64,000 nt of DNA from Dehalococcoidia bacterium (lineage in GTDB: Bacteria > Chloroflexota > Dehalococcoidia > UBA2979): NCBI GenBank assembly GCA_964291495.2, contig OZ219871.1:736001-800000 (forward strand), written 5' to 3'. Below the pieces are notes generated by a model. It was not told the origin of the DNA. It searched no databases and was given only the letters and a program-made list of their open reading frames with translations. Below are positions 8,437 through 23,540 of the stretch, piece after piece (positions within the stretch are counted from its first letter, which is position 1; each line of letters starts with the position of its first letter). The translations under genes were made by a program, and so were the position numbers.

Positions 8437-8482
8437 CTATGGCGCCGCAGCAATGACCGCCCAGCTGGAAGGAACCCAAATC

Positions 8483-9802
8483 GTGCGGAACATCATGGGA
8501 TTGCGGACGCTCGCGACCGCGCTGCTGCTCGCGCTCGCGCTCGCCGCGGCGGCGTGCGCGAGCGACGACGGCGATGACGGTGATGCCGGTGATGCCAGCC
8601 AGGCTGCGGCACAGCCTCCGCAAGTTGAGGAGCGTCTCCAGGTTGTCGCGTCCACCGGCATCATCGCCCACTTTGCCGAACAGATCGCCGGAGACGACGC
8701 CGACGTCGTGTCCGTGATCCCGCCGGGCGCGGACGCGCACAGCTTCACCCCCACCACCACCGCCATCCGCAACATCGCCGCCGCCGACCTCGTGATCGTC
8801 AACGGCTATAACCTCGAAGAGAGCACCCTGGCCACCATCTTCGAGAACCTGCCTGAGGATGCCACGCTCGTTGTCGCCACCGCCGGCATCGCCCCCCTCG
8901 AGGGCGGCCACCACCACCACGAGGACGAACACGGCCACGACGAGGACGAGGACGAACACGGCCACGACGAGGACGAGGACGAACACGGCCACGACGAGGA
9001 CGAGGACGGCCACGACCACGACGAGGACGAAGAAGGCCACGACGACGAAGAGGGCCACGACCACGACGAGGACGAGGACGGCCACGACGACGACGAAGAG
9101 GGCCACGACCACGACGAGGACGAAGAAGGCCACGACGACGACGAAGAGGGCCACGACCACGACGAGGACGAAGAAGGCCACGACGACGAAGAGGGCCACG
9201 ACCACGACGAGGACGAGGACGAGCACGGCCACGACGACGAGAAGATGAAGGTCGCCGCGGAGCACGAGCTCGCAGTCGCCGATGGCGACCCGCACATGTG
9301 GCTGACCGTCCCGAACGCGATGGTCTACGTGCGCAACATCGCCAACGCGATCGTCGCCGCCGACCCGGACAACGGCGCCGCCTACCGCGAGCGCGAGGCG
9401 GCCTACCTCGCCGAGCTACAGCAACTCGACGAGGAGGTGCGGGCCACAATCGCCGGCATTCCGGAGGAAAGCCGCGTGCTGATCGTCTACCACGACGCCT
9501 TCCAGTACTTCGCCGCCGAGTACGGGCTCGAGCTGGCCGCGTCCCTGCTGCCGGGTAACCCCTCGCAGCAGGCGAGCGCCGCCGCCGTCGCCGAGATCAT
9601 CGAGATCGTGGCCGGCCGCCAGGTCGGCGCCGTCTACCGCGAGCCGCAGTTCGCCGCGACCGCACTCGAGGCGATCGCTGAGGAGGCGGGCGTGCGCGCG
9701 CTGACGATCTACTCCGCCGCCTTCACGGACGAGGTCGACAGCTACGTCAAGCTGATGCGGGCGAACGCGGACGCGCTGGTCGAAGGGCTTGGCGGCGGGT
9801 AG
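8483..9802 (+). CDS. znuA: Zinc ABC transporter substrate-binding lipoprotein with very long His/acidic loop
   Basis: Lipobox AAAC; PPGADAHSF, NGYNLE, DPHMWL, YHDAFQYF motifs of the ZnuA/TroA family. Confidence 0.92.
   Translation: MRNIMGLRTLATALLLALALAAAACASDDGDDGDAGDASQAAAQPPQVEERLQVVASTGIIAHFAEQIAGDDADVVSVIPPGADAHSFTPTTTAIRNIAAADLVIVNGYNLEESTLATIFENLPEDATLVVATAGIAPLEGGHHHHEDEHGHDEDEDEHGHDEDEDEHGHDEDEDGHDHDEDEEGHDDEEGHDHDEDEDGHDDDEEGHDHDEDEEGHDDDEEGHDHDEDEEGHDDEEGHDHDEDEDEHGHDDEKMKVAAEHELAVADGDPHMWLTVPNAMVYVRNIANAIVAADPDNGAAYREREAAYLAELQQLDEEVRATIAGIPEESRVLIVYHDAFQYFAAEYGLELAASLLPGNPSQQASAAAVAEIIEIVAGRQVGAVYREPQFAATALEAIAEEAGVRALTIYSAAFTDEVDSYVKLMRANADALVEGLGGG
8909..9243 (+). repeat. Coding tandem repeat (HGHDEDEDE / GHDHDEDEE units)
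   Basis: Repeats of CACGACGAGGACGAGGACGAACACGGC and variants, all in frame. Confidence 0.95.
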
Positions 9803-9832
9803 CGCTCGCAGGGCAGAGGGCGGAGCGGGCCG

Positions 9833-10654
9833 GTGACGTCTCATCGCGAGCCCACGCACACGTGTGGCCCGCTCGCGCTCGAGGTCAGCGGCCTCTGGGC
9901 CGGTTACCCCGGCAAGCCGCCTGCGATCGAGGACGTCAGCTTCGACGTCCCGCAGGGGGAGATGGTCGGCCTCGTCGGGCCGAACGGGGCCGGCAAGTCC
10001 ACGCTCTTCAAGTCGATCCTCGGCGTCATGCGTCCGCTGCTCGGCGAGGTGCGTGTCTTCGGGCGCCCCGTCTCGGAGACGCGGTCGGACGTCGCCTACA
10101 CCCCGCAGGTCGAGGAGGTCGACTGGGAGTTCCCGGTCAGCGTTCGCGACGTGGTGCTGATGGGCCGCTGGCGTGGGACCAGCCCGTTCCGTCGCTGGTC
10201 GCGCGAGGACCGCGAGGCCGCCGAGGACGCACTCGAGCGCGTCGGCCTCGCCGAGCTCTCCGGGCGGCAGGTCGGCGAGCTATCGGGCGGGCAGCGCCGC
10301 CGCGTGCTGATCGCCCGCTCGATCGCGCGAGGCGCGCGGCTGCTGCTGCTCGACGAGCCATTCGCCGGCCTCGACGCCGCCGTCGAGCACGACCTGCTCG
10401 TGATCCTCGGCGAGCTCACCCACGAGGGCTGCAGCATCCTGATCGCCACGCACGACATCTCCTGCGTTGCGAACGCCTGCCACGGGGCGTGCTGCCTGAA
10501 CCGCCGCGTGCAGGGCTACGGGCCGCCCGCCGACGTGCTCACCGAGGACGTGCTCTCGCGCACCTTCGAGCGCGCGCTCGTCCCGGTCGGCGCGGATCGC
10601 GAGTTCGTGGTCGCCGCGGGCACGGCGCCGCCCGGGCGGTCTGAGGGCGGATGA
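9833..10654 (+). CDS. znuC: Zn/Mn ABC transporter ATP-binding protein
   Basis: GPNGAGKST, LSGGQRRR, LLLDEPF, THD motifs; operon context. Confidence 0.92.
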   Translation: MTSHREPTHTCGPLALEVSGLWAGYPGKPPAIEDVSFDVPQGEMVGLVGPNGAGKSTLFKSILGVMRPLLGEVRVFGRPVSETRSDVAYTPQVEEVDWEFPVSVRDVVLMGRWRGTSPFRRWSREDREAAEDALERVGLAELSGRQVGELSGGQRRRVLIARSIARGARLLLLDEPFAGLDAAVEHDLLVILGELTHEGCSILIATHDISCVANACHGACCLNRRVQGYGPPADVLTEDVLSRTFERALVPVGADREFVVAAGTAPPGRSEGG

Positions 10655-11508
10655 TCGTGGAACTCGCGGAGTGGCTGATCGCGCCCTACGAGTACACGTT
10701 CATGCGACGCGCGCTCGGCTCGCTGCTGATCGTCAGCCTGGTCGGCTCGGTCGTCGGCACCTTCGTCGTGCACAAGGGGTTGGCGGCGTCGGGCAACGGG
10801 CTCGCGCACGCGACGCTGGGCGGAGTTGCGATCGCCTTCGTCAACGGCGCCAGCGTAGCGCTGGGCGCCCTCGCCGCGGCCGTCGCGACGGCGCTCGGCA
10901 TCGGCTACGCGCGGCGCACCTCGCGCGTCAGCTACGACACGGCGATCGCGATCTTCTTCGTCTCCGCTTTCTCGCTCGGCATCCTCGTGATCTCGCGCCG
11001 CTCGACCTACACGCCGGACCTCCTCTCCTTCGTGTTCGGCGACATCCTCGGCGTCTCGCGGGCGGACCTGGTCGGCGAGCTCGCGCTTGCCGTCGTCGTG
11101 ATCGGCTTCGTGCTCGCCTTCTACCGGGAGATGGTGATGGTCGCCTACGACCCCGGAATGGCGGCTGCGGCCGGGGTGCGGACTGGGTTCTTCGAATTCT
11201 CGCTGCTGGTCCTGATCGCGCTCGCAGTGGTGGTGGCGCTGCAGGCGATCGGCATCGTGCTGGTCACGGCGACGCTGATCATCCCGCCGGCGACGGCGAG
11301 CCTGCTGTTCCGGCGGATCCCGCTGATCATGGCGACAGGGTTCCTGATCGGCGCGGCCACCTCCGTGGCCGGCCTGTACGCCTCGTTCCACGCGGGCGTC
11401 GCCGCCAGTCCCGCCATCGTGCTCTCCGCGACGGCCACCTTCACCGTCGCGCTGCTGGCCACCTCGCTGCGCCGCACGCGCCTCCCGGCTCCCGCAACCG
11501 CCGAGTAG
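10651..11508 (+). CDS. znuB: Zn/Mn ABC transporter permease
   Basis: ABC-3 motifs 'YTFMRRAL', 'LAHATLGG', 'FGDILG'; ATGA overlap with znuC. Confidence 0.92.
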   Translation: MIVELAEWLIAPYEYTFMRRALGSLLIVSLVGSVVGTFVVHKGLAASGNGLAHATLGGVAIAFVNGASVALGALAAAVATALGIGYARRTSRVSYDTAIAIFFVSAFSLGILVISRRSTYTPDLLSFVFGDILGVSRADLVGELALAVVVIGFVLAFYREMVMVAYDPGMAAAAGVRTGFFEFSLLVLIALAVVVALQAIGIVLVTATLIIPPATASLLFRRIPLIMATGFLIGAATSVAGLYASFHAGVAASPAIVLSATATFTVALLATSLRRTRLPAPATAE

Positions 11509-12400: not shown

Positions 12401-13432
12401 CTACGGCAGCACGCCGGCCGAACGCAGCAGGCGCAGCGTGCCCTCGAGGTCCGCGAGGTCGCTCAGGTCGATCGGCGGCGGCTGCAGGTCGGCGATGGGC
12501 GTGAGGTGGGGGGCGCTCGGCACGCCCGCGATCAGCGGGTACTCGGAGTTCGTCTCCGCGTAGTAGCGCTGCGCCTCCTCGCCGAGCATGAACTCGAGGA
12601 ACTTCCGCGCCTCGTCGCTGCGGTCCGAGGTCTTGAGGACGCCGGCGCCCGCCACGTTGACGAGCGTGCCGATGTCCCCCGGGCCGGTGTGGTAGTTGCG
12701 CGCGGGGAAGCCCTCGCCCTCCTCGGCAAGGAAGCGGTGCAGGTAGTAGTGGTTGACGAGGCCGACGTCGACCTCGCCGCGGCCGACGGCGGCGACGATC
12801 GACACGTTGTTCGGGAACTCGGCCGCGTCGTTCGCCTTCATGCCCTCAAGCCAGGCGCGCGCGGCCTCCTCGCCCTCGCCGACGCGCAGCGCGGTGACCC
12901 ACGCCTGGAACGAGCCGTTGGCGGGCGCCCAGGCGACGCGGTCGCGCCACTTCGGGTCGGTCAGCTCGAGGATCGAGGTCGGCAGCTCGGAGGGCTCGAG
13001 GACGTCCGTGTTGTAGATCAGCACGCGCGCGCGGCCGGAGAGCCCGACCCACTGTCCCTCGCGCGAGCGGTAGGCCGACGGCACGAGGTCAAGGATGTCG
13101 TCGTCGAGGTCGGCGAACAGTCCGGCCGCCTGCACAGCGCCGAGCGCGCCCGCGTCCTGTGCGATGTAGAGGTCGGCCGGGCTCTGCTCGCCCTCCTCGA
13201 TGAGGAGCGCGGCGAGCTGGGCGGTGCCGCCGTAGCGCACCTTGACGTTGATGCCGGTCTCCTCGGCAAAGCGCTGGAGGAGGGGCCCGACCAGGTCCGG
13301 GCTGCGGCCCGAGTAGATCGTGAGCTCCCGCTCGTCATCGTCGCCGCAGCCGACGGCAAGCAGCGCGCCGGCCGCGGCGACCGCCAGCACCCCGATCGAC
13401 AGCAGCCGCAAGACACTTCCTCGTGACGTCAT
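12401..13432 (-). CDS. Fe(III) ABC transporter substrate-binding lipoprotein (FutA/FbpA family)
   Basis: TIYSGR, EGEQSPAD, VGLSGRARV, GLVNHYY (tandem Tyr iron ligands), EYPL; lipobox AVGC. Confidence 0.9.
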   Translation of the reverse strand: MTSRGSVLRLLSIGVLAVAAAGALLAVGCGDDDERELTIYSGRSPDLVGPLLQRFAEETGINVKVRYGGTAQLAALLIEEGEQSPADLYIAQDAGALGAVQAAGLFADLDDDILDLVPSAYRSREGQWVGLSGRARVLIYNTDVLEPSELPTSILELTDPKWRDRVAWAPANGSFQAWVTALRVGEGEEAARAWLEGMKANDAAEFPNNVSIVAAVGRGEVDVGLVNHYYLHRFLAEEGEGFPARNYHTGPGDIGTLVNVAGAGVLKTSDRSDEARKFLEFMLGEEAQRYYAETNSEYPLIAGVPSAPHLTPIADLQPPPIDLSDLADLEGTLRLLRSAGVLP

Positions 13433-13493
13433 CGCTACCCCGCAGAATTCGTCCCAGCCTACCAGCGTCAGACGTTGACACTATGACCATATA

Positions 13494-13512
13494 TTAGGTT
13501 AGACTGCATTTC
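13494..13512. promoter_or_regulatory. DtxR/IdeR-like iron box in divergent promoter
   Basis: TTAGGTTAGACTGCATTTC matches consensus TTAGGTTAGGCTAACCTAA at 12/19 with a perfect left 9-mer; AT-rich patch with TTGACA at 13475. Confidence 0.5.
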
Positions 13513-13586
13513 GGCATCAGTCCAGAGCCTTACGAGGTCATAGCGCGAATCGTACCACGGATCCCCTCCAAGCGAACAAGGGAGCA

Positions 13587-16500
13587 ATGCCTGGACTCAT
13601 GACGAACGTGGCAGGCAGCACAGGACAACTCCGGGGGCCCGCCCTGCTTGGCCGGCGCTCGCGCTGGCTCGTGGCGGCGCTGCTTACCGTCGTCGCCGCT
13701 GTCGTGGTCCTCCGCGCCGCCGATGGCGCGCTGCTGCGGGAGGGCATCGCCGAGCTGGCGAGGCGCCCCGCATTGCTCGCGCTCCTCTTCGGCGGCTACG
13801 CCGCAGCGTTCGTGCTGCGGGCGTTCGCCTGGCGCGTGCTGCTCGGGCGCGCCCGCGGAGGCGCAAGCAGCGGACGGCTGATCGCGATCCTCCACGCCGC
13901 CCTGCTCGCCAACCACGCGCTGCCCGTCAAGGCGGGCGAGCTGCTGCGACCGGCCCTCGCAGCCCGCGCCGGCATCCCGATCGCCGACGCGACCGTCTCG
14001 ACGGTCGTCGCCCGGGTGCTCGACATCGCCGCGCTGCTCGCGATCGCCGCCGCCCTGCTGCCGCTGACCGCGGGTGGGGATGGCGCGACGGTACTCGCCA
14101 TTCCGGCGCTGCTGCTCGCCGCCGTTGCCGTCGGGCTGCTCTGGTTCCGCGGCACGAGCCTCGCCGGAACCGGCTTCGAGATGTTCGACCGGCTCTGGAC
14201 GCACGCGCGTGACTCGCTCCGCGCGCTCCCGCTTCGCGCCGTCCTGGTCGCGTTCGCCATCACCGTGCCGGGCTGGCTGCTGGAGTCCGTCGTCCTCTAC
14301 GCGGCGGCGCAGGCGCTCGGCCTCGAACTCTCATTGCCAGCGGCAGCCGCGGTGACGGCGTTCACGATCCTCTTCCAGATCGTGCATCTCACGCCCGGCG
14401 GGATCGGCGTCTACGAGGCGAGCATGACCGCCGCCCTGCAGGCGCAGGGCATGCCGGGCGGCGAGGCGCTGACGCTCGCTGTGCTCACGCACGGGCTCAA
14501 GTTCGCCTACGCCTTCGGCCTCGGGGCGCCGCTCACGCTGCTCGCCGTCGGCGGGGTGCCGTCGCTCAGCCGCCTGCGCGGCAGCCGCGAGGACTCGAAG
14601 CGCGCCGGCCGCTTCGAGATCGTGGCGGCCCGGCTCTGGAACGTGCTCAACGAGGGCAAGCCGTTCACCCCCGTGTTCGTCGCCGGCGTGCTGCTGCTGC
14701 TCGGCCTCCCGCACTTCGCCGACGGCGGCTACTGGCTCAGGCAGCTGGTCGCACTCGTCGCGCTGCTGCCGCTGTTCGCCCTGTTCTATCGCTACGCCTT
14801 CCCGCTGCACCTGCGCGGCGGGTTGTGGGTGCTGCTCGCGGCCTGCCTCGCGCTGTTCCGCTTCATCGACGTGCAGGCGATCGCTCTCGTGTTCGCGTTG
14901 TACCTGGGCTTCACCGTCGTGCTCTGGGGCAGCGTCTACTACCACCTGCGCATCGGCACGCCGTGGACGAACGGGCTGCGTTTCTGGCGGCTCGTGCTCG
15001 AGAACCCGGACCCGACGAGCGGGAACTTCCTCGAGCAGGTTCCCAAGGTGCTCATCCTCGTGCTGCTCTCCGGCTTCCTCGTGGACCACCCGGGCCCGCT
15101 CTCGATCGCGGCCGTCGAGGCGTTCACGCTCGGCGCCGCCGTCCTCACCGTACTCACCCACCAGTGGTGGTTCACCTGGGCGCCGCCCGACCCACTGGCG
15201 CCGACGCGGCTGCGTAACGAGGGTGGCCCCGCGCTCTGCCGCCGCGTGATCCTGATCGTGATCGACGGCTGCCGCGCCGACCGGCTCGCCGAGGCGCGCA
15301 CGCCGTTCCTCGACCGTCTCGCCGCCGAGGGCCTCGCCTGCGAGGACATGCGCACGGTCTACCCGGCGCGCACGGTCACCGCGTTCACCTCGATGCTGAC
15401 GGGTGCGACGCCGCGCGTGCACGGCATGCGCAGCAACTTCGTGCCCTCGCTCGGCGCGAAGTGCGAGTCGATCTTCGACGTGCTGGAGCAGCGCGGCATG
15501 CGCGGCCGCCTCGCCGGCATCGCCCACCTCGTCGACTCGTTCGGCGAGGAGGCCGTCGAGACGGTCACCGCCGTCACGCCGAACGAGGAGATCGACGACG
15601 CGCTCGTCGCCCGCGCGCGCGAGGTCATGCGGCGCGACGACCCCGAGCTGCTGGTCCTGCAGACGCTGTCGGTCGACCAGACGGGCCACGCGCGCGGCAG
15701 CTACTACCCCGAGTACCTCGAGCGCATCGAGGCGACAGACCGGCTGCTCGAGGAGTTCGTGGGCTGGTGCCGCGCGGAGGGCTACCTCGACGGCGCGACG
15801 CTGATCGTGACCTCCGACCACGGACAGGGTCGCGGCATCGGCGGGCACGGCCACCTCACCGAGCCGGAGCGCCGCGTGCCCTTCATCGCCTGGGGCGAGG
15901 GCGTCCCGCGCGGCGTGCGCATCGAGGACGACCGGAGCCTGCTCGATGTCGCGCCGACGCTTGCGTACTACCTCGGGGTCCCGCCGCCGGCACGGTCGGT
16001 CGGCCAGGTGCTGTTCACGCCGGACGGCGTGCCGCCGCGCGACGACGGCCCGCTCGCGATCGTCATCCCGGCCTACAACGAGGCCGAGGTGCTGCCGGAG
16101 GTGCTCGCCCGCATCCCGCGCGCGCAGCTCGGCGAGACCGTTGCGATCGTGGTCGACGACGGCTCCGAGGACGGCACCGCCCTCGTCGCGGAACGCACGG
16201 GCGCGGACCTCGTGGTGCGGCACGAGCGCAATCGCGGCCTCGGTGCGGCGCTGCGCACGGGCCTCGAGACCGCGCGCGGGCTCAACGCGCGTGCCGCCGT
16301 CTACCTGGACGCCGACCTCGAGTATGACCCGGCGGAGATCCCGGCGCTGCTCGCGCCGATCGAGGCCGGCGAGGCGGACTACGTCCTCGGCTCGCGCTTC
16401 CTCGGACGCCGCGAGGGGCACGCGCTGTGGCGCTCCTCGGGCAACCGGGTCTTCACGCTGGCGCTGAGCTTCGCCGCCGGCCGGCGCATCTCCGACGGGC

Positions 16501-16724
16501 AGACGGGGTTCCGCGCCTTCTCGGCGCGGGCGCTCAACGTGGCGGAGATCGTCCACGACTACAACTACGCGCAGGTCCTCACGCTGGACCTGCTGCACAA
16601 GGGGATGCGCCTCGCCGAGGCGCCGATCTCCTACCGCAGCCGCACCCGCGGCCGCTCATTCATCAACGGGCACTACCTCTGGCGCGTGCCACTCGGCATG
16701 GCGCGGGAGTTGTTGGGCAGTTAG
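13587..16724 (+). CDS. Triple fusion: LPG-synthase-TM/UPF0104 flippase-like + membrane-bound alkaline phosphatase/phosphodiesterase family + GT2 (DPM1-like) glycosyltransferase
   Basis: N: ANHALPVKAGELLRP, TPGGIGVYE. Middle: ILIVIDGCRAD, YPART, SVDQTGH, TSDHG, GGHG. C: VIPAYNE, VDDGSEDGT, YLDADLEY, DGQTGFRAF. One uninterrupted 1045-aa ORF. Confidence 0.85.
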   Translation: MPGLMTNVAGSTGQLRGPALLGRRSRWLVAALLTVVAAVVVLRAADGALLREGIAELARRPALLALLFGGYAAAFVLRAFAWRVLLGRARGGASSGRLIAILHAALLANHALPVKAGELLRPALAARAGIPIADATVSTVVARVLDIAALLAIAAALLPLTAGGDGATVLAIPALLLAAVAVGLLWFRGTSLAGTGFEMFDRLWTHARDSLRALPLRAVLVAFAITVPGWLLESVVLYAAAQALGLELSLPAAAAVTAFTILFQIVHLTPGGIGVYEASMTAALQAQGMPGGEALTLAVLTHGLKFAYAFGLGAPLTLLAVGGVPSLSRLRGSREDSKRAGRFEIVAARLWNVLNEGKPFTPVFVAGVLLLLGLPHFADGGYWLRQLVALVALLPLFALFYRYAFPLHLRGGLWVLLAACLALFRFIDVQAIALVFALYLGFTVVLWGSVYYHLRIGTPWTNGLRFWRLVLENPDPTSGNFLEQVPKVLILVLLSGFLVDHPGPLSIAAVEAFTLGAAVLTVLTHQWWFTWAPPDPLAPTRLRNEGGPALCRRVILIVIDGCRADRLAEARTPFLDRLAAEGLACEDMRTVYPARTVTAFTSMLTGATPRVHGMRSNFVPSLGAKCESIFDVLEQRGMRGRLAGIAHLVDSFGEEAVETVTAVTPNEEIDDALVARAREVMRRDDPELLVLQTLSVDQTGHARGSYYPEYLERIEATDRLLEEFVGWCRAEGYLDGATLIVTSDHGQGRGIGGHGHLTEPERRVPFIAWGEGVPRGVRIEDDRSLLDVAPTLAYYLGVPPPARSVGQVLFTPDGVPPRDDGPLAIVIPAYNEAEVLPEVLARIPRAQLGETVAIVVDDGSEDGTALVAERTGADLVVRHERNRGLGAALRTGLETARGLNARAAVYLDADLEYDPAEIPALLAPIEAGEADYVLGSRFLGRREGHALWRSSGNRVFTLALSFAAGRRISDGQTGFRAFSARALNVAEIVHDYNYAQVLTLDLLHKGMRLAEAPISYRSRTRGRSFINGHYLWRVPLGMARELLGS

Positions 16725-16761
16725 CCAGAGCGCCACCCGGCGCGGAGGGAGGAATCGAGTC

Positions 16762-18042
16762 ATGAGAGTGGCATTGGCAGGCCTGCGCACGGTCGCGGCG
16801 TTCGTGGTCCTCGCAGCACTGGCGGCGCTTGTCGCCGCCTGCGACGGCGACGATGGCGAGGACCGGCCGGGCACGGTGGAGGTCGTCGACGGGGGATCGG
16901 CGTCGGTATCGGCCTCCGTCTCCGGTGTCAGCGGGTCCGTCTCCGGCACGGGGACTGGCACGGGCACGGCGACCGGCTCCGTTTCCGGCACGGGGACCGG
17001 CACGGGCACGGCGACCGGCTCGGCGACCGGAACCGGCACGGGCACGGCGACCAGGGCTGACGAGCGGGGCCTCTTCATCCCGGTGGGTCAGCCTGCCGAG
17101 ACGGAAGGCCCTACCAGGTCGGACGGCTACTACTACCCCACGACGAACCGGGAGATCTACCAGAAGATCGCCTCGGACTACCAGGAGATCGCCTCACTCA
17201 CCAACGTGATCAAGGATGGCGAACCCTTGCCCGCGGCGGAGATCTGGCTGCTCTATGAAGCTGGTCCGCACACCCGCATCGGCAACCAGAGCCGGACACT
17301 CCGCAGCTTCGCAGCTGGCACCACGCCGGGCCGCTATTTCCCGGATGCCGCGGAGTTCTACGGGTCCGGCACGTTCCTCGACAGCCCGATCCAGAACGCA
17401 GTGCGCCAGCGCGGCGACGCGGCGGACTACACCGACGCGCAACGGCGTCAGGCCATCAACAAGGGCATCCTCCGGGTCCTCTACCACTGGTCCAAGTTCT
17501 ACATGATCATCGGCGGCGACTTCATGCGATCCGGCCTCGTGGACGAGGCATGGGCCGTCTACGTCGGCGAGGAAGTCGACGGCGAGTACCCGAACTCGCT
17601 GGCTGCCCTGGCCCGGTCGCGGGAGGGCAACTTCGGCAGGGAAGGGACGCTGGACGTTCCCCTCCGCGAGGCGATGGAGCAAGCCCGGCAGGCGGCCGAC
17701 GCGGGGGACGAAGCGGCCTACGCAAGCGCGGCGCGGGACGTGTACTCGCGATTCAACGCCATCTTCTACCTGGCAACCGTGCGGTACATCGGCATCGCGC
17801 AGGAAGACGTACAGAACGGCGACGACCCGGGCACGCACCAGGTTGAAGCGCTGGCGTTCTACCAGTCGATCCAGCCCGAGGTCGCCAGGGCCGACCCGGC
17901 TGCCGACGAGACGATCATCGCCTACCTCACGGCTGAGCCGGACCAGGTCACGGCTGCGTCGCGGGACGCGGCTCTGGCCGCGCTCAACAGGACGGCGGAG
18001 GCCCTCCTGCTGAAGCAGAGCGACCTGGTGGCGAGCTACTAG
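16762..18042 (+). CDS. Lipoprotein with Gly/Ser/Thr repeat linker and FEA1-like (low-iron-inducible) domain
   Basis: Lipobox VAAC. 'VDEAWAVYVG...LARSREGNFG', 'FYLATVRY' and 'EALAFYQSIQP' resemble FEA1-family motifs as recalled; not searched. Confidence 0.6.
   Translation: MRVALAGLRTVAAFVVLAALAALVAACDGDDGEDRPGTVEVVDGGSASVSASVSGVSGSVSGTGTGTGTATGSVSGTGTGTGTATGSATGTGTGTATRADERGLFIPVGQPAETEGPTRSDGYYYPTTNREIYQKIASDYQEIASLTNVIKDGEPLPAAEIWLLYEAGPHTRIGNQSRTLRSFAAGTTPGRYFPDAAEFYGSGTFLDSPIQNAVRQRGDAADYTDAQRRQAINKGILRVLYHWSKFYMIIGGDFMRSGLVDEAWAVYVGEEVDGEYPNSLAALARSREGNFGREGTLDVPLREAMEQARQAADAGDEAAYASAARDVYSRFNAIFYLATVRYIGIAQEDVQNGDDPGTHQVEALAFYQSIQPEVARADPAADETIIAYLTAEPDQVTAASRDAALAALNRTAEALLLKQSDLVASY
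16897..17052 (+). repeat. Coding low-complexity repeat (SVSGTGTGTGTATG x2-3)
   Basis: 42-bp unit TCCGTYTCCGGCACGGGGACYGGCACGGGCACGGCGACCGGC repeated in tandem. Confidence 0.9.
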
Positions 18043-18126: not shown

Positions 18127-18945
18127 ATGAAGATCACCATCGCGGGCTACGGCTCGATCGGCCACTACGTCGCCGACCTGTTCCGCGACCTCGAGCCTGC
18201 CCTCTACGACCCGCCGCTCGGCCTCGGCACGGTCGAGGATCTGCGCGACACGGACTTCGTGATCGTCTGCGTACCGACGCCGCCCCTGCCCTCCGGCGCG
18301 TGCGACACCTCCATCGTCGAGGAAGTCGTGAGGCTCGCCGATCCGCGCGTGGCGATCGTCTGTCACAGCACGGTCGCCGTCGGCACGACGGAGCGGCTGA
18401 TCGCGGGGACGGGGAAGCCGATCGTCTTCGTCCCCGAGTACGCGGGCGAGGCGGACGATCATCCGCTGCGCAACCCCGCGAACCGCCGCTTCCTGATCTA
18501 CGGCGGCCACGAGCCCGCGACGTCCGCCGTACAGGCGCTCTACGAGCAGGCGTACGGACCCGGCCTGCGGCACTTCCGCGTGGCCCCGACGCTCGCCGAG
18601 GTCGTGAAGTACATGGAGAACGCCTTCCTCGCCGCGAAGGTCGCGTTCTGCAACGAGTTCTTCGACCTCTGCAACGCGGCGGGCGTGGACTACGAGTGGG
18701 CCCGCCTGCTCTGGCTGCAGGACGATCGCATCAACCCCAGCCACACCGTCGTCACCGAGGAACGCGGCTACGGCGGGCAGTGCCTGCCCAAGGACGTGGC
18801 CGCGGTCTGCGACGCCGGACGCGAGCTGGGCGCGCCGATGGCGATCCTCGAGGCGGTCCAGGCGGCGAACGTGCGGCATCGAATCAGCGGCGCGAGCGCG
18901 GCGGCGGCCGCGCTGCCCGCCGCTGCGGGGGTACAGGGAAGATGA
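18127..18945 (+). CDS. UDP-glucose/GDP-mannose dehydrogenase family protein, short form without the C-terminal domain
   Basis: GYGSIG, CVPTP, STVAVGTT, PEY, KYMENAFLAAKVAFCNE, GYGGQCLPKD (catalytic Cys); only 272 aa. Confidence 0.85.
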   Translation: MKITIAGYGSIGHYVADLFRDLEPALYDPPLGLGTVEDLRDTDFVIVCVPTPPLPSGACDTSIVEEVVRLADPRVAIVCHSTVAVGTTERLIAGTGKPIVFVPEYAGEADDHPLRNPANRRFLIYGGHEPATSAVQALYEQAYGPGLRHFRVAPTLAEVVKYMENAFLAAKVAFCNEFFDLCNAAGVDYEWARLLWLQDDRINPSHTVVTEERGYGGQCLPKDVAAVCDAGRELGAPMAILEAVQAANVRHRISGASAAAAALPAAAGVQGR

Positions 18946-19436
18946 ACGGCCGACGCATGAAGATCGGCGGCATGAGCCGCTGCGACTGCGGGCGCCACAC
19001 CTGGCTGGTGCTCCACGAACGCGAAGGCGAGACGCACGTCTGGCTGCGCGTTCACGCGGACCTCGCCAGCTGGTTCACGCCGGACCACGGCGGCATCACG
19101 CGCCTCGTCCGGGCCCTCGGCGACGTGCTGCAGGGCATCGGCCAGGAGCCGCGCGCCGTGATCGTCAGCTACGACGCGAAGCGCCGCATCCGGCTGCGCC
19201 TGCGCCTCGCCGGGAGCGTCGGCGAGACCGACGTCGAGTGCGAGCCGGGGGTCGCGCTGCTCGCCGCCGAGCGGATCGGGCTGCCGATCCTGCTGCAGTC
19301 GGCAGCACCCGACGGCGATTCGCCGGCGCGTCCCGCCGAGCCGGCGAAGACCGCGATCCCCGAGGTCTACCGCGAGGCGCTGGCTGAGCTGGGGCTGCTG
19401 GAAGGGGCGCCGGACTGCCTGGACCGGCTCGACTGA
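18942..19436 (+). CDS. Degenerate DUF151/bifunctional-nuclease-like protein
   Basis: ATGA-coupled to the upstream gene; 'WLVLHERE', and 'VECEPGVALLAAERIGLPI' parallels DUF151 'IDARPSDAIALA.R...PI'. Confidence 0.45.
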   Translation: MNGRRMKIGGMSRCDCGRHTWLVLHEREGETHVWLRVHADLASWFTPDHGGITRLVRALGDVLQGIGQEPRAVIVSYDAKRRIRLRLRLAGSVGETDVECEPGVALLAAERIGLPILLQSAAPDGDSPARPAEPAKTAIPEVYREALAELGLLEGAPDCLDRLD

Positions 19437-20872
19437 TTCGACGGCGCGGGCGGCCCCCGGCGTCCCGCGCGGGGACGCCAGGTGAGAGCCGCCCACGCCG
19501 CCAGGGCGAGGCCTCCGAGGCCAAGCCAGGCGACGGTGAGCAGCCACGTTTCGGTCGTCCACGAGGTGTACTGCGGGAACAGTCCGGCCACGCCCCGGAA
19601 GAACACGGCCTGTAGCTCGAACGGGTCGACCGCGATCACGACCTCGCGCGAGCGGCCGGCCTCGGCGAGCGCCGCCGTCACGGCGAGCGAGTAGACGCCG
19701 AGCGCCACGAGCGCGGCGCGCCAGGCACGACCGCCCCTCGAGGCGACGAGGACGAGCGGGATCGGCAGCAGCGGGAAGACCGTCACGAGCGTGCGGCCGG
19801 GGAACCACCAGCCCATCATCGTGATTACGACGAAGGTCGCGATCAGCACCTGCACGGCGACGAGGCCCAGCACGAGGCGCTGCCTCTCGTCGCCGCGCGC
19901 CAGCAGCAGCAACCCCGGCACGACGGCGAGCAGCAGCGGCGCCCAGCGCGCGACGCCGAAACGCCGGTCGATCAGCAGCCCCCACAGCCGGTAGACCCGA
20001 TCGCCGAACTCGACGTGCTCCCCGACGATCGTGGCCGTGGAGCCGCCCGCGTAGACGAGGTTCACGTTGTACGGCGTGAGCGACTCATAGGTCACGAGGT
20101 GGAACGCGCCGTAGACGAGCCCGGAGACGGCCCCGCCTCCGAGGAGCACGAGCCGCCCTCGGGGTTCGGCGCGCCAGAGGACGTAGAGCGCGACCAGCGC
20201 GGCGAGCGGCGCGTACTTCGCGCCCAGCCACGGCAGCGCGGAGAGCAGCAGCACCAGCACCAGCACCCGACCGGCCGGGAGGCGCTCGCGCCCCGTCGCG
20301 ACGAGCAGCGCCCCCACGAGCGCGAGGGCGGCAGGTACCTCGGGATAGACCTCGGAGGAGTAGATAAACGCCGTCGCGCTGAGGGCAACGGCGGCTGTCG
20401 CCAGCCAGACCGGCAGCGGCCGCGCCTCGGTCAGCCGCAGCGCGAGCAGGTAGGCGAGCGCCCAGGTCAGCGCCGCGATCAGCACGAGTTGGAGCTGTGC
20501 CCCCGCCAGCCCAGTGAGGGCGAACCCCGGCAGGAGCAGCACGGAAAGCCCGACGTTGTGCGGGCTCAGCACCCGTCCGTCCTCGAGCGGGACGGACTGC
20601 GTCCACAGCCCGTCGCGATGGTCGAAGAACGACTCGTACGAGCGCGTCGCGTACTGCTCGCGGAGATCGAGGTTCCCGTCCTCCAGCAGGCTCTGCGTCG
20701 TGATCAGGTAGAACGGTTCATCGCCGGTGATCGAGGCGCCTCGGCTGGCGCGGATGTCGATCGACGTGCTGTAGACGACGGCCAGCAGTGCAAAGAGCGC
20801 GATCGCCCCGGCCATGCCCGGCCGGGCGCGGGCGAGTTGCGCCAGTGAGCCTGTCGCGTCCGTCAGTCGCAC
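19367..20872 (-). CDS. GT-C fold (PMT-like) multi-pass glycosyltransferase
   Basis: 'ITGDEPFYL' DE motif after TM1, 'YSSEVYPE', 'LPWLGAKY', 'GWWFPGRTL'; about 12 TMs. GTG 20872 follows GGAGAG. Confidence 0.7.
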   Translation of the reverse strand: MRLTDATGSLAQLARARPGMAGAIALFALLAVVYSTSIDIRASRGASITGDEPFYLITTQSLLEDGNLDLREQYATRSYESFFDHRDGLWTQSVPLEDGRVLSPHNVGLSVLLLPGFALTGLAGAQLQLVLIAALTWALAYLLALRLTEARPLPVWLATAAVALSATAFIYSSEVYPEVPAALALVGALLVATGRERLPAGRVLVLVLLLSALPWLGAKYAPLAALVALYVLWRAEPRGRLVLLGGGAVSGLVYGAFHLVTYESLTPYNVNLVYAGGSTATIVGEHVEFGDRVYRLWGLLIDRRFGVARWAPLLLAVVPGLLLLARGDERQRLVLGLVAVQVLIATFVVITMMGWWFPGRTLVTVFPLLPIPLVLVASRGGRAWRAALVALGVYSLAVTAALAEAGRSREVVIAVDPFELQAVFFRGVAGLFPQYTSWTTETWLLTVAWLGLGGLALAAWAALTWRPRAGRRGPPAPSNQSSRSRQSGAPSSSPSSASASR

Positions 20873-21031
20873 GGCGCTCTCCGGGAGGATTGACGCGCAA
20901 TCGAGGGCTCCTCGGGACCCCTCACGCCGCCATTGTCGCACCACTGGCGGGATTGCCACCGCGTCGCGACCCACGCGCGCCTTCGAGCGCGTGCCGCGCG
21001 AAACGACACGCGCCTGGAGAGCTACCCTAAC

Positions 21032-21121: not shown

Positions 21122-21934
21122 TCAGCGCAGCTTCCACTCGGGCGGGCGCCTCTCGGCAAAGGCCCTCGGGCCTTCGATCGAGTCTTCCATCGCCTCGACC
21201 TTGTCGAACAGGGCGAGCCCGAAGCGCTGCGCCCAGTGATCGTCCTGGAAGAGGTAGCGGTAGATGAGCTCCTTGTGCGTCCAGACCGAGACCGGGCCCA
21301 TCTCGCAGACCTCCTCGGCCCACTGGATGGCTTCGTCGAGCAGTTGCTCCCTCGGCACGACCTTGTTGACCCAGCCGACCTCGTACATCCGCTGAGCGGT
21401 GTATTGCCGTGCACCCCACAGGGTCATCTCCATGACCATTGCGGGCGGAATCATGCGTGCCGCCTGCGCCATGAACGACGCCGGGAGGTTCCAGCGCACC
21501 TCCGGAACCCCGAACATCGCGTGCTCCGCAGCGATGCGCACATCGCAGATCTGGGAGAGGAACCAGCCCCCTGCCACGGCGAAGCCGTTGACCGCGCCGA
21601 TGATCGGCTTCCAAAACTCGTGGTCCACCGGGGCGAGCTTGGCCCAGCCACCCTGATCGTCGACGTACTGGACGAAGCCGCCCTCGTACTCCTCGTCCAG
21701 CTCGGCGCGATCCTTGAGGTCCTCGCCGGCGCAGAAGAAGCGGTCACCCACCGCGGTCAGGATCACAGCCCAGATTTCGTCGTCGGCCTTGAGCCGCGGC
21801 CACTCCTGAGCAAGGCGGCGCGCGAGGTCGAAGTTGATCGAGTTCCCGCGCTCCTCGCGGTTCACGGTCAGCACCGCATAGTGCTTCTCCGGCACCCGCT
21901 CGACGAGCAGCACGTCATCTCCGCGTATCGCCAT
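21122..21934 (-). CDS. Enoyl-CoA hydratase/isomerase
   Basis: FCAGEDL, KPIIGAVNGFAVAGG, FGVPEV, EGPRAFAERRPPEW. Confidence 0.92.
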   Translation of the reverse strand: MAIRGDDVLLVERVPEKHYAVLTVNREERGNSINFDLARRLAQEWPRLKADDEIWAVILTAVGDRFFCAGEDLKDRAELDEEYEGGFVQYVDDQGGWAKLAPVDHEFWKPIIGAVNGFAVAGGWFLSQICDVRIAAEHAMFGVPEVRWNLPASFMAQAARMIPPAMVMEMTLWGARQYTAQRMYEVGWVNKVVPREQLLDEAIQWAEEVCEMGPVSVWTHKELIYRYLFQDDHWAQRFGLALFDKVEAMEDSIEGPRAFAERRPPEWKLR

Positions 21935-21958
21935 GTCGTCCCTCCCCGGGTTCCGCAC

Positions 21959-22408
21959 TCACTCCCGCGAGGGGAGCAGCACGGTGCCTTGCGCCGGTGT
22001 CGCAACCCCCTCGCGGTCGTTTGCGATCGAGAGCTCGATCTCGACGGCGTTGCCGTCGTCGGTCTGTTCCTTGGCGACCACCTTGCCGCTCACTGTGATG
22101 GTGTCGTCCGGCATGTTCATGCGCCGCATCTCGAAGTGCAGCCTGCGCACCCAGCCCTCCGGTCCGGCAAAGTCTGCGAGGAGTCGGTAGAGCTGCGCGC
22201 GCGTCCAGCCGGTGTTGTAGAAGACGGTGCGGTGCCCTCCCGACTGCGCAAACGGCGGGTCGTGATGCACCGCGTAGAAGTCCTGCGAGCCGCTCACCTG
22301 TTTGACCATCTCCGTCCAGTCGAGCGGGTAGGAGAAGCCCGGCAGTTCGTCGCCCACGCTCACGTCCTCGAAGTAGATCTGCGGTAGCGGGTCCAGCTTG
22401 ACGGCCAT
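21959..22408 (-). CDS. MaoC-family (R)-hydratase subunit (ChsH1-like)
   Basis: YFEDVSVGDELP; hydratase motif SQDFYAVHHD. Confidence 0.85.
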   Translation of the reverse strand: MAVKLDPLPQIYFEDVSVGDELPGFSYPLDWTEMVKQVSGSQDFYAVHHDPPFAQSGGHRTVFYNTGWTRAQLYRLLADFAGPEGWVRRLHFEMRRMNMPDDTITVSGKVVAKEQTDDGNAVEIELSIANDREGVATPAQGTVLLPSRE

Positions 22409-22432
22409 CGCCGTGCTCCCTCGTCTGTGGGC

Positions 22433-23008
22433 CTACGCCGCGTGCAGCCCGAGCGGGTCGGGGTTGGCCTCGACCTCCTCGGGCGCGCGGTGGCGCAGGC
22501 TCGTGTTGCGGCTGATCGCGACGAGCTCGTCGTCCTGGTTGTAGAAGCGCGTCTCGTCGATGATCCAGATCGCGTTCGGGTCGAGGCCGATCGGCTTGAC
22601 GAAGACGTCCGCGATCGAGGGCTGCAACCAGAGCCTGTCGCCGATCTTGATGGCCTTCAAGAACTCCCACGTCGTGCTGAGGTTGATCGCCCGATCGCCG
22701 ATTACGGGAACGTCGAGGTCCTCGTTGTCGGGCGCCGGGATATCGGGGCCGCCGTTCCAGTTTGGCCACGTCCCGTCGCCGGCGAAGTAGTCGGCCATCA
22801 CGCCGGGGGCGATGTTGTCGCCGTACTGGCTGTTCCGCCCGTACTCGGGGTCGATGAACAGCGGGTTCCTCCCGTAGCACATGTGCTCATGACGGCGGAT
22901 CGGATCATGCTCCACCGGGTAGAGGCCATCCTTCCGCTCGCCCGTTCGTCCTATGTACCGCTCCCGGATCTGGTCGATGTCGTAATCGGCCGCTGCTACC
23001 TTCGGCAT
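22433..23008 (-). CDS. MaoC-like hot-dog fold subunit (ChsH2 N-terminal-like)
   Basis: NPLFIDPEYG...IAP, EFLKAIKIGDRL, FYNQDDELVA. Confidence 0.8.
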   Translation of the reverse strand: MPKVAAADYDIDQIRERYIGRTGERKDGLYPVEHDPIRRHEHMCYGRNPLFIDPEYGRNSQYGDNIAPGVMADYFAGDGTWPNWNGGPDIPAPDNEDLDVPVIGDRAINLSTTWEFLKAIKIGDRLWLQPSIADVFVKPIGLDPNAIWIIDETRFYNQDDELVAISRNTSLRHRAPEEVEANPDPLGLHAA

Positions 23009-23059
23009 TGACTCCCCCTCACCCGACGCCACGCACGGGCGCCGGCTCACCGGCGCCGC

Positions 23060-23530
23060 TTAGATGTACGCCCAGTGCACCAGCGAGTACGGGGGGTCGT
23101 GATCGGGGTGGTGCTCGAACACCGCCTCGACCTCGGCGCCGATGACGACGTCTCCCTCCGGCTCGCCGAGCAGGTTCCCGAGCATGCGGATGTTCCCGGC
23201 CTGCGGGAGCTCGACGAGGACAACCACGTACGGCACTGCCTCGACGAGCGCCGGGTGCACCGGATGCCACGCGCGCTCCCAGGAGTAGATTCGCCCGCGC
23301 GGCTCCACCTCCCGCCACTCGAGGTCGTACGTGTGACAGCTGTAGCAGAGCCACTCCGGGCCCCACTGCCATACCTCGCAGGAGGGGCAGAACTGAACCA
23401 GCAGCTCGTTGCGGGCGGCGCCCTCCCAGTAGGGGCGGTCGAGCTCGTTCATCAACGGCACCGGGAACGCCGGAGCCTCGGCGAAGTATGCGCCGCCGGC
23501 CTGGATCTCGGACCTCGTCGCGTTGGCCAT
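23060..23530 (-). CDS. DUF35 zinc-ribbon/OB-fold protein
   Basis: PYWEGAARNELLVQFCPSC...CYSC, GRIYSW, VPYVVVLVEL. Confidence 0.9.
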   Translation of the reverse strand: MANATRSEIQAGGAYFAEAPAFPVPLMNELDRPYWEGAARNELLVQFCPSCEVWQWGPEWLCYSCHTYDLEWREVEPRGRIYSWERAWHPVHPALVEAVPYVVVLVELPQAGNIRMLGNLLGEPEGDVVIGAEVEAVFEHHPDHDPPYSLVHWAYI

Positions 23531-23540
23531 CGTTCGTTCC

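Follow-up and report, generated by a model that had tools for sequence, protein, structure and literature searches.

A 64,000-nucleotide stretch of a Dehalococcoidia genome (GenBank assembly GCA_964291495.2, contig OZ219871.1, positions 736,001 to 800,000), hereafter called the window, carries on its forward strand a single open reading frame (ORF) of 1045 codons at positions 13587..16724. The encoded protein, P0001, joins three parts that we call A (a flippase-like domain), B (a membrane bundle plus an alkaline phosphatase (AP) core) and C (a glycosyltransferase of family 2, GT2), and its full-length relatives are conserved. The frame begins with ATG, and the sequence AAGGGAG lies 4 nucleotides upstream. 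Throughout the text, L-numbers denote genome loci, P-numbers denote proteins or protein clusters, and G-numbers denote genomes in comparison sets.

Part A (13587..14576, + strand, amino acids 1 to ~330) is a UPF0104 flippase-like domain with about eight transmembrane (TM) helices, as evident from Pfam, hydropathy and an AlphaFold2 model. The LPG-synthase-type membrane module that an earlier, sequence-only reading of this DNA had placed at the N-terminus is recognized by the Pfam model LPG_synthase_TM (PF03706, COG0392) over amino acids 28-309, with 127 bits against a cut-off of 33.4 (E 1.3e-36), and part A thus belongs to this family. The model for the flippase-like domain, TIGR00374, gives a partial match (37.1 bits vs 43.2). 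Part A is predicted to be a lipid flippase. In the available text of two papers, this activity has been shown among UPF0104 proteins only for MprF and is predicted for AglD and GpgF (PMC12713373, PMC5898192).

Part B begins with a bundle of six helices and two conserved juxtamembrane helices (14589..15221, + strand, amino acids 335-545; hydropathy and AlphaFold2). The second TM bundle of the sequence-only reading corresponds to the hydrophobic region of amino acids ~360-525 that lies between part A and the AP core, as seen both by hydropathy and in the AlphaFold2 model. No Pfam or NCBIfam model covers this region, and a comparison of the bundle with the ESM Atlas gave a best score of only 0.76 and revealed no family or fold, nor any evidence that the fold is new. 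Among 25 B sequences from Chloroflexota, Bacillota, Actinomycetota and Asgard archaea, 37 bundle residues, most of them polar, are invariant across the bacterial and archaeal members.

The bundle is followed by a minimal, NPP-like core of the AP superfamily (15228..16022, + strand, amino acids ~548-812), as identified by Pfam, by alignment to the solved structure 2gsn and by VIA-align. Three overlapping Pfam models match amino acids 553-800, namely Phosphodiest (8.4e-26), Sulfatase (2.4e-18) and Metalloenzyme (5.2e-12). The best alignment to a solved structure is with the nucleotide pyrophosphatase/phosphodiesterase of Xanthomonas (Xac NPP, 2gsn; E 4.8e-12), and ENPP4 is also close. The metal ligands (IDG, DQTGH, DHG and a further H) and the nucleophilic Thr of PART that had been picked out from the letters alone all align to catalytic residues of 2gsn: IDGCRAD of the fusion pairs with IDGLRAD of Xac NPP, YPARTV with YPSLTF (which holds the Thr nucleophile), HGMRSN with HGIVHN, VDQTGH with VDEAGH, SDHG with SDHG, and GGHGH with GSHGY. 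The pairing is a result of the alignment tool; in NPPs, these positions supply six ligands to the metals, the nucleophile and the Asn that binds the phosphoryl group. All eight have a counterpart in the AP core, as in the NPP-like branch, and residues D227, T263, N284, D364, H368, D411, H412 and H423 (numbering of the B alignment) are invariant in all 25 B sequences.

The sequence-only reading had proposed structure prediction as a check, and the resulting AlphaFold2 models are confident, with a mean predicted local distance difference test score (pLDDT) of 84.3 and a predicted TM-score (pTM) of 0.69 for the whole fusion (35 sequences) and values of 85.9 and 0.85 for part B alone (25 sequences). 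The model of part B consists, in order, of an amphipathic N-terminal helix, four membrane helices, a short helix within a highly conserved loop, two further membrane helices and a compact α/β core. With Foldseek, the AP part finds Xac NPP at E 1.1e-9. A wide VIA-align search with the B model covered only residues 212-482 and left the membrane bundle without a match. Its highest Z values belong to NPP7 (5udy; 28.9 over 263 residues, root-mean-square deviation (rmsd) 2.6), PafA (28.7) and Xac NPP (28.3), followed by many sulfatases (24-27), LtaS (23.3), PbgA (22.9), and EptA and MCR-1 (20.3). This puts part B in the AP superfamily near the NPP/PafA branch, but because rows within 1 Z unit count as ties, the match does not specify a substrate. 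Part B resembles Xac NPP and human NPP7, its best matches by sequence and fold, in the two-metal site, the Thr nucleophile and the phosphoryl-binding Asn. However, those enzymes are soluble, secreted proteins of ~380 residues with substrate-binding insertions, whereas part B is a ~265-residue core attached to a membrane bundle.

Part C (16044..16724, + strand, amino acids 820-1045) is a GT2 catalytic domain of the DPMS/ArnC/AglJ type with no TM anchor of its own, as established by Pfam, alignment and Foldseek. The model Glycos_transf_2 (PF00535) covers amino acids 825-983 (90.2 bits, E 1.8e-25), and part C aligns with dolichyl-phosphate mannose synthase (DPMS, 5mlz; E 2.3e-15) and also with ArnC, such that the DDGS motif and the previously noticed DAD motif are in register with both. 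Foldseek likewise returns ArnC (9asc; E 3.6e-10, target-normalised TM-score 0.58) and DPMS (5mlz; 1.2e-9). Part C has the GT-A fold and the DDGS and DxD motifs of polyprenyl-phosphate GT2 enzymes, and its DDGS, DAD and D-x-Q-T-G-F-R motifs are invariant in 35 of 35 full-length fusions. Judged by their conserved motifs, the three modules joined on this chain are catalytically complete.

The fusion gene is real, intact and under strong constraint. The surrounding DNA is 72% guanine plus cytosine (GC), and the GC content of the third codon position stays at 0.84-0.99 in a single frame from the start to the stop of the fusion, with lower values in the other two frames. There is no hidden frame change, because this high third-position signal remains in one frame throughout. 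Of 8000 candidates scored in a search of 5.8 billion clustered proteins, 759 proved to be relatives at E <= 0.001, and 119 of the best 120 (57-90% identity, 907-1149 amino acids) carry all three domain sets, with P0024 as the one listed relative that lacks a GT2 model. The few relatives with a name in their sources, which come from Dehalococcoidia metagenome-assembled genomes (MAGs), are called 'hypothetical protein' or 'lysylphosphatidylglycerol synthase domain-containing protein'. Logan contigs of run X1 are identical to the fusion over six pieces, and a contig of 1647 nucleotides from another study (X2) is identical over 14957-16603, thus crossing the junction between the AP core and the GT2. 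The listing of Logan contigs shows indels in just one contig, from a relative, where a +1 and a -1 compensate each other. Coding signal, relatives and contigs therefore agree with the sequence-only reading that this is one 1045-residue frame free of stops and frameshift scars. Runs X3 and X4, which are labelled 'sponge metagenome', contain contigs 90-99% alike to parts of 13400-16900, and we regard this only as a lead to habitat.

Two related assemblies could be cited in favor of the alternative that the long ORF stems from faulty assembly or annotation, or that three genes have run together in a decaying pseudogene. The near-identical P0250 and the long-read assembly G472 (the record of L004) each carry a single frameshift that looks like an indel. 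Of the two sites, in L068 (G472:C1:550500-556500) and in P0250, one lies within the GGHGH motif region and the other near the C-terminus of the GT2. We read both as errors or recent decay, and hence as no argument against the fusion. The shifted frames run without a stop into the downstream lipoprotein gene by way of a GC-rich alternative frame, which mimics a four-part fusion of 1460-1530 amino acids. A natural four-part fusion with the FEA1-like lipoprotein (the 1484-residue P0250 and a 1534-residue frame in G472) was rejected as a candidate, since both cases are single frameshifts. Given a coding signal that holds one frame across the whole ORF, the full architecture in nearly all of the best relatives, a single ORF in 34 of 65 genome loci (see below), invariant catalytic residues and an independent contig across the B-C junction, the probability that the frame is an artefact or pseudogene is negligible.

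Each of 185,579 species was represented by one genome in a scan that produced 65 loci, which were scored by the ORF that holds each part. A, B and C share one ORF in 34 of these, all with Chloroflexota-type MAG labels except for single records from Actinomycetota (L024) and Elusimicrobia (L028). They occupy three adjacent ORFs in seven loci, which comprise four from Bacillota (L052, L053, L054 and L061), two Actinomycetota MAGs and L046 (counted without frameshift inspection). B and C are adjacent with no A in 11 loci (eight Rubrobacter-type and three from Asgard archaea), A and C are fused with no B in nine (Microthrixaceae, Acidimicrobiia and others), and the remaining four are truncated or frameshifted. 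In the Bacillota loci the separate genes keep the same order as in the fusion. The A gene of L061 (Peribacillus asahii) ends at 8957 and the B gene, taken at the length of its RefSeq protein, starts at 8954, which gives an overlap of 4 nucleotides, and the C gene follows 6 nucleotides after B. These consecutive RefSeq proteins of 313, 486 and 265 amino acids are named 'UPF0104 family protein', 'alkaline phosphatase family protein' and 'glycosyltransferase family 2 protein'. The sequence-only reading had treated the fusion as Rosetta-stone evidence for joint action and had suggested a search for the three parts as adjacent separate genes. The four Bacillota loci supply exactly this arrangement, and other fusions exist.

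In Asgard archaea, part B carries an N-terminal VTT/DedA domain (PF09335, E ~1e-17) and is followed by a 729-residue polytopic DUF6541 protein and then by a GT2 (for example in L045). These VTT-B homologues (Promethearchaeota, Borrarchaeum; L043 6471-8606, L045 6944-9079 and L047 5179-7296) are 44-45% identical to bacterial B. Part B is thus joined to two unrelated families of lipid translocators, to UPF0104 in bacteria and to VTT/DedA in Asgard archaea, and this offers independent support for the unproven flippase roles of both. Among the loci, B always has C beside it and A-C occurs without B in nine, and so B depends on C and not the reverse. Gene order and homology show A, B and C to be separable partners, and the fusion together with its split and alternative forms makes an unusually clear genomic case for three membrane activities that operate as a unit.

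To gauge the size of the B family, a profile of the bundle only (200 positions) was compared with 1.84 billion representative proteins, which gave 125 matches at E <= 0.001. Stricter limits leave 92 (E <= 1e-10) or 48 (E <= 1e-30), and many of the matches are fragments. The Phosphodiest model is found in 23 of 27 bundle proteins of at least 446 amino acids (all of that length except P0021), so that the bundle essentially never occurs without the AP core. Architectures among the bundle proteins are A-B-C, A-B (P0169, 845 amino acids), B-C (P0138, P0144 and P0146), VTT-B (P0132) and B alone, and P0140 consists of B-C plus a further 400 unexplained residues. Within the order to which the window belongs, the bundle is present in 21 of 99 genomes, or in 14 of 48 when only high-quality genomes are counted, and in 7 of 21 genera; in an even sample of the phylum, none of 400 genomes other than the window's own has it. 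The cassette is therefore an accessory, patchily spread trait. This patchiness, together with B identities of 44-65% between phyla and domains, suggests horizontal spread. Part B is a small, unnamed and previously undescribed enzyme family, known to databases only as 'alkaline phosphatase family protein'. Full-text literature searches, whose reach excludes subscription-only papers and supplements, retrieved no description of the B family, of B placed between a flippase and a synthase, or of the cassette in iron-uptake loci.

These distributions bear on one account of what part B does, by which it would be a cytoplasm-facing phosphatase or pyrophosphatase that acts on polyprenyl diphosphate or a lipid phosphate and feeds polyprenyl phosphate to the GT2. 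NPP-type sites are generally known to cleave pyrophosphate bonds, and the coupling of B to C is tight. The fusion of B to VTT/DedA in Asgard archaea is also in keeping with such a role, as VTT/DedA is a proposed polyprenyl phosphate transporter according to the available text of a preprint (10.1101/2022.02.03.479048). However, a housekeeping step should not be rare, and the bundle is found in none of the 400 other phylum genomes and in only 21 of 99 of the order; moreover, nine loci have A-C systems that manage without B. We consider a role in acceptor supply to be distinctly unlikely.

The orientation of the AP core in the membrane can be deduced from its neighbors on the chain. A GT2 that draws on nucleotide sugars has to lie in the cytoplasm, and neither hydropathy nor the AlphaFold2 model reveals a hydrophobic or membrane segment between the AP core and the GT2. 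Hydropathy assigns about eight helices to A and six to B; the linker 328-359 holds eight Lys or Arg residues, and none of the long loops is hydrophobic. UPF0104 precedes GT2 in the nine A-C loci, and the available text of PMC5898192 gives the order GT2 then UPF0104 for AglD. Because UPF0104 occurs fused on either side of cytoplasmic GT2 domains, both ends of part A should be inside. Part B would then start and end inside, so that the AP core, the N-terminal helix and the TM2-3 and TM4-5 loops would all face the cytoplasm, and it is in these two loops that most of the 37 invariant bundle residues sit. The proposal that the AP domain is cytoplasmic, made earlier because it adjoins a GT2, is thus supported by the lack of a membrane segment between the two domains, by the even number (six) of bundle helices and by the Lys/Arg-rich loop 328-359. 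The companion claim that a cytoplasmic AP domain is unusual for the superfamily must be narrowed. Soluble cytoplasmic members exist (iPGM and phosphopentomutase, both of which were matched), but an inward-facing polytopic member is indeed unusual. Part B would be the first of this kind, since LtaS, EptA/MCR-1 and the glycosylphosphatidylinositol (GPI) ethanolamine-phosphate transferases all work outside.

Enzymes of the LtaS/EptA type have five TM helices and an extracytoplasmic catalytic domain. Part B shares with LtaS, EptA/MCR-1 and PbgA/YejM the succession of an N-terminal membrane domain and an AP fold with a Thr nucleophile, but it differs from this type in having six helices and a predicted cytoplasmic domain joined to the GT2 without a TM segment. 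In addition, the membrane part of EptA does not match the bundle of B (rmsd 5.1 over 337 residues), and NPPs resemble the AP core more closely.

The resemblance to NPPs raises the alternative that part B is a nucleotide pyrophosphatase/phosphodiesterase, which would remove the UDP or GDP by-product or trim the nucleotide sugar and thereby pull the reversible GT2 reaction forward, with the bundle serving only as an anchor. Its closest relatives with structures (Xac NPP, E 4.8e-12, and ENPP4) are nucleotide pyrophosphatases, and its cytoplasmic site next to the GT2 would suit this task. Against it, the AP core has Val where Xac NPP has, after the nucleophile, a Phe that stacks on the nucleotide base, and so it lacks this feature of the NPP nucleotide pocket. 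The middle of NPP has no counterpart in the AP core, which is reduced to ~265 residues with the NPP insertions gone. Furthermore, 37 invariant and mostly polar residues on the bundle's cytoplasmic side go far beyond what an anchor needs. We therefore regard nucleotide removal as very unlikely.

The genes around the fusion point to metal uptake. Downstream by 38 nucleotides lies the gene for a FEA1-related lipoprotein of 426 amino acids (P0121; 16762..18042, + strand) with a lipobox Cys and a long Ser/Thr/Gly-rich linker. It matches NF038033 with E 1.1e-34 and 119.8 bits, under the cut-off of 250, and is thus a relative rather than a certified member of that family. Upstream of the fusion, on the other strand, is a divergent solute-binding protein (SBP) of the SBP_bac_6/1/11 type (12401..13432, - strand), which by its sequence is probably FbpA-like and iron-specific. 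Farther upstream, 8453-11508 (+ strand) encodes a ZnuA-type binding protein, an ABC ATPase and an ABC-3 permease, which together form a metal-ion ABC importer, and the region is therefore a metal-uptake neighborhood.

The same theme recurs in other lineages. The Bacillota operon encodes, in order, a FEA1-like lipoprotein, a short-chain dehydrogenase/reductase (SDR) epimerase/dehydratase, A, B, C, an imelysin-like protein (a weak match, E 0.013), an FTR1/EfeU permease (NF041756, E 1.9e-57) and a 491-residue polytopic protein, and a full-length UDP-glucose dehydrogenase gene lies divergent from it. In Rubrobacter (L062), B and C are flanked by an epimerase, a PMT_2 GT-C protein, an imelysin (8.5e-37) and FTR1. 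Two Dehalococcoidia loci (L016 and L025) place an ABC transporter, composed of an SBP homologous to the window's divergent one, a double permease and a TOBE-containing ATPase, between the FEA1-like and GT-C-like genes, a layout that we take to match ferric-ion FbpABC systems. In L006, an imelysin and a DyP peroxidase (an EfeO/EfeB pair) follow and a ferrochelatase precedes. Marker proteins (FEA1-like lipoprotein, FTR1/EfeU, imelysin, DyP and FbpAB-like) were used as BLASTP queries at E < 1e-6 and the flanks of the loci were examined, which placed at least one iron marker at 46 of the 56 B-containing or partial loci, versus 3 of 9 loci with A-C only. Within the window's order, the FEA1-like gene occurs in 20 of 99 genomes and the fusion in 21, with both in 19 and neither in 77; G410 and G471 have only the fusion, and G450 (77% complete) only the FEA1-like gene. 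In 18 of the 19 genomes with both, the two genes are on one contig within about 4 kb.

Sites that resemble the Bacillus Fur box are found just upstream of the FEA1-like gene that opens the Bacillota operon in four of four loci, at L052 5689-5703, L053 5729-5778, L054 5657-5671 and L061 5731-5745. In L061 and L054 this upstream site is the only match with at most 2 mismatches in 19 kb, compared with about 0.4 expected. A perfect site and a one-mismatch site are also present between the GT2 and imelysin-like genes of L052 and L053 (L052 11134-11148, L053 11245-11259), ahead of the imelysin-like and FTR1 genes. These sites suggest that A, B and C of the Bacillota operons may be under iron control.

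Enzymes of sugar metabolism form the second recurring group of neighbors. Beyond the lipoprotein gene, the window encodes a 272-residue nucleotide-sugar-dehydrogenase-like protein (18127..18945, + strand) that keeps the Rossmann GxGxxG and catalytic Cys motifs and is missing the entire C-terminal UDP-binding domain. We considered and discarded the possibility that it is a frameshifted UDP-glucose dehydrogenase, because the short form is conserved in L001 (15095-15913), L006 (12566-13378), L019 (12329-13126) and also L014. The protein might oxidise a sugar that is not nucleotide-linked, such as a lipid-linked hexose. The adjoining interval 18942-19436 (+ strand) has a coding-like third-position GC of 0.92-0.96 and would give a product of ~160 amino acids (within P0122) with no Pfam match. 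Dehydrogenases neighbor 22 of 34 one-ORF fusions and 4 of 7 split loci, compared with 0 of 9 A-C-only loci, and epimerases neighbor 6 of 7 split loci but 1 of 9 A-C-only loci. Sugar-nucleotide dehydrogenases and epimerases are thus enriched near B.

The third recurrent partner is polytopic. Convergent with these genes, 19367..20974 (- strand) encodes a 535-residue membrane protein with 12 hydrophobic segments and an invariant GDEPFY motif in the loop after TM1, which we regard as a GT-C-like candidate transferase. ESM Atlas leads for this protein include clusters with PMT or PMT_2 in 12-14% of members. BLASTP with four polytopic queries (E < 1e-6) finds a match to at least one of them in 44 of the 56 B-containing or partial loci, and the Rubrobacter partner in L062 is a PMT_2 protein by a score of 33.1 bits, above the Pfam cut-off of 26.1. 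By comparative genomics, the cassette is an accessory unit that sits within iron-uptake loci and is accompanied there by a GT-C-like protein and by enzymes of sugar-nucleotide metabolism. The sequence-only reading had noticed neither the iron-uptake genes nor the GT-C partner, nor that GT2 and UPF0104 were already a known pair (AglD).

This combination of partners could also be fitted to a pathway for glycerolipid head groups. In this scenario, B would act like a phospholipase C or D, C would glycosylate a glycerolipid, and A would flip the final (phospho)glycolipid, for instance an anionic uronic-acid lipid that aids iron capture, with the GT-C-like neighbor being unrelated or secondary. The dehydrogenase and epimerase neighbors fit a uronic-acid lipid, a Peribacillus A protein weakly matches the 'GlcN-PG flippase' model NF053789 (E 2.1e-4), and the best structural match of the AP core, NPP7, is an alkaline sphingomyelinase (Z 28.9), although it is tied with enzymes that do not act on lipids. 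Moreover, UPF0104 flips modified glycerophospholipids in MprF and is proposed to do so in gpgSDF/hexSDF, according to the available text of PMC12713373 and PMC5898192. Conversely, GpgS of the GlcN-PG pathway is described there as a GT4 enzyme (PMC12713373), whereas the GT2 of the fusion is nearest, by sequence and by fold, to polyprenyl-phosphate glycosyltransferases (DPMS, ArnC, AglJ and PpgS). The polytopic GT-C-like gene found at 44 of 56 B-containing loci likewise speaks against this scenario, in that such enzymes use polyprenyl-phosphate sugars. A glycerolipid pathway is, in our view, improbable.

We give slightly better than even weight to a polyprenyl-phosphate-sugar glycosylation system, composed of a synthase, a flippase and a GT-C protein, that includes a cytoplasmic step of phosphoryl transfer or hydrolysis and serves iron capture. 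Both the chemistry of B and the acceptor of the glycan are inferred. In this system, C would transfer a sugar at the cytoplasmic face from a nucleotide sugar to polyprenyl phosphate, an acceptor suggested only by the closest relatives of the GT2 and by its GT-C-like partner. The sugar would probably be a uronic acid or a derivative, because of the dehydrogenase and epimerase neighbors. B would next use its two-metal/Thr NPP-type site, set against the conserved cytoplasmic face of the bundle, to carry out a phosphoryl-transfer or phosphodiester step on the lipid-linked sugar. In the form of this step that we rank first, and that takes roughly one third of our belief in the model as a whole, B would move a phospho-head group off a membrane phospholipid and onto the lipid-linked sugar. 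It is put first because, to our knowledge, every characterised polytopic enzyme of the AP superfamily transfers phospho-head groups, and because a reduced AP core held against a conserved polar membrane surface looks as if it were built for two lipid substrates. Hydrolytic editing, with a HAD phosphatase fused to a synthase as precedent (PMC11127046), would come next, followed by supply of polyprenyl phosphate. A (or VTT in Asgard archaea) would move the product to the outer leaflet, where the GT-C-like protein would pass the sugar to an extracytoplasmic acceptor, most plausibly the co-encoded iron-capture lipoprotein or lipoproteins, or the adjoining envelope.

Several observations weigh against this proposal. 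With respect to part C, its scores fall far under the equivalog cut-offs of NCBIfam for AglJ (91 vs 325), PpgS (78.8 vs 370), Dol-P-hexose transferase (72.7 vs 375) and ArnC (45.1 vs 529), and for this reason the sequence does not fix its sugar or acceptor. The 535-residue protein reaches only 32.3 bits (E 4.6e-8) with NF047440, 'putative glycosyltransferase', where the cut-off is 200, and a profile of 17 sequences found no relative in the PDB by sequence. BLASTP and hhalign detected no similarity among the polytopic neighbors of Chloroflexota, Bacillota and Asgard archaea and thus gave no support to a single GT-C family for them. The link to iron has its own gaps. Ten of the 56 B-containing or partial loci, including the three Asgard loci and several short contigs, have no iron marker, and no FTR1 was found in the window's own genome (93.7% complete), whereas FTR1, imelysin and DyP are present in Bacillota and Rubrobacter loci. 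The FbpA-like assignments depend on broad SBP families. The co-occurrence of the fusion with the FEA1-like gene shows a co-inherited cassette and carries no statistic, as related genomes are not independent. With regard to the Fur-box-like sites, AT-rich intergenic DNA raises chance matches above the estimate from shuffling whole loci, and L052 has 4 matches at up to 3 mismatches where 4.5 are expected. Finally, the FEA1-like proteins of Bacillota are without the Ser/Thr-rich linker of their Chloroflexota counterparts, which makes a single shared protein acceptor less likely.

A more specific version of the polyprenyl-linked pathway is held only tentatively, as we think it unlikely to be correct in every particular. 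It would be an accessory pathway, probably under iron regulation, in which a uronic-acid-type sugar carried by polyprenyl receives a phospho-substituent from a new class of inward-facing polytopic AP-superfamily transferase; once flipped, the product would be attached by a GT-C protein to extracytoplasmic iron-capture proteins (FEA1/phytotransferrin-like, EfeM/imelysin or FbpA-like lipoproteins) or their surroundings. The core of translocator-B, GT-C and GT2 would be common to Asgard archaea as well. If true, these monoderm bacteria would need a dedicated anionic glycan in order to take up iron with high affinity.

The Arn pathway has a modifying enzyme whose step falls between those of the synthase and the flippase. 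The fusion can be compared with such three-component systems, from which it differs in having UPF0104 (or VTT) as its candidate flippase rather than a GtrA, SMR or MATE protein, in having a polytopic AP-superfamily protein as the intermediate enzyme, and in carrying all three cytoplasm-side functions on one chain. The likeness is that in GtrB/GtrA/GtrC (available text of PMC11127046), and also in ArnC/ArnD/ArnEF/ArnT and CsbB/GtcA/YfhO, a cytoplasmic GT2 loads polyprenyl phosphate, a flippase exports the product and a GT-C enzyme transfers the sugar outside. The same source describes the O-antigen proteins ORF15/ORF14/ORF12 of Citrobacter youngae, where a synthase is fused to a phospho-esterase that edits a lipid-linked sugar phosphate before flipping, and a GT-C is also present (Kelly et al., 2024; PMC11127046). 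Unlike the fusion, that system has a synthase that uses phosphoribosyl pyrophosphate (PRPP) and is not a GT2, a soluble HAD phosphatase, a MATE flippase and O antigen as its target.

Two other precedents involve UPF0104 itself. AglD of Haloferax volcanii (arCOG00899 neighborhoods) is a DPMS-like GT2 fused to UPF0104, a predicted flippase, near PMT/STT3-like transferases; but its order is reversed, it serves S-layer N-glycosylation, and the available text mentions neither an AP module nor a link to iron (PMC5898192). The pairing of GT2 with UPF0104 and its GT-C neighborhood were predicted there in 2015 (Makarova et al., PMC5898192). The gpgSDF genes of Pseudomonas aeruginosa and hexSDF of Clostridioides difficile form a triad of synthase, modifier and UPF0104 protein (with a predicted flippase role) that makes a modified membrane glycolipid. 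As far as the available text extends, these triads differ from the fusion in their GT4 enzyme, their deacetylase modifier, their phosphatidylglycerol or diradylglycerol substrate and the absence of a GT-C protein (Khan et al., 2025; PMC12713373).

Synthase-modifier-flippase triads and three-component systems are therefore already known, and what is new is the unnamed B family and the iron-uptake context. The latter ties lipid-linked sugar chemistry to iron acquisition (FTR1/EfeUOB, FbpABC-like and FEA1-like) in three bacterial phyla. The split operon occurs in the culturable hosts Peribacillus asahii, P. butanolivorans and Cytobacillus dafuensis, which makes direct experiments possible.

A conserved block in the promoter region of the fusion (13475..13514, + strand) consists of TTGACA and an invariant stretch of 23 nucleotides. 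It is identical in five of five aligned relatives (85-95% protein identity), whereas the flanking intergenic DNA varies. The first nine bases of the 23-nucleotide stretch resemble a DtxR/IdeR half-site. A search for a regulon found no second copy in the window or genome beyond one site with 3 mismatches, and a reversed control matched more often. Beyond the GT-C-like gene, 21122-24725 (- strand) holds enoyl-CoA hydratase, ChsH2-like OB-fold/zinc-ribbon and thiolase-like genes, an unrelated cluster of the type that degrades lipid or steroid side chains. Near the Rubrobacter B and C genes, L062 12053-13453 encodes a glycoside hydrolase that resembles mannosylglycerate hydrolase (PF22422, E 1e-111), and its presence there is probably coincidental.

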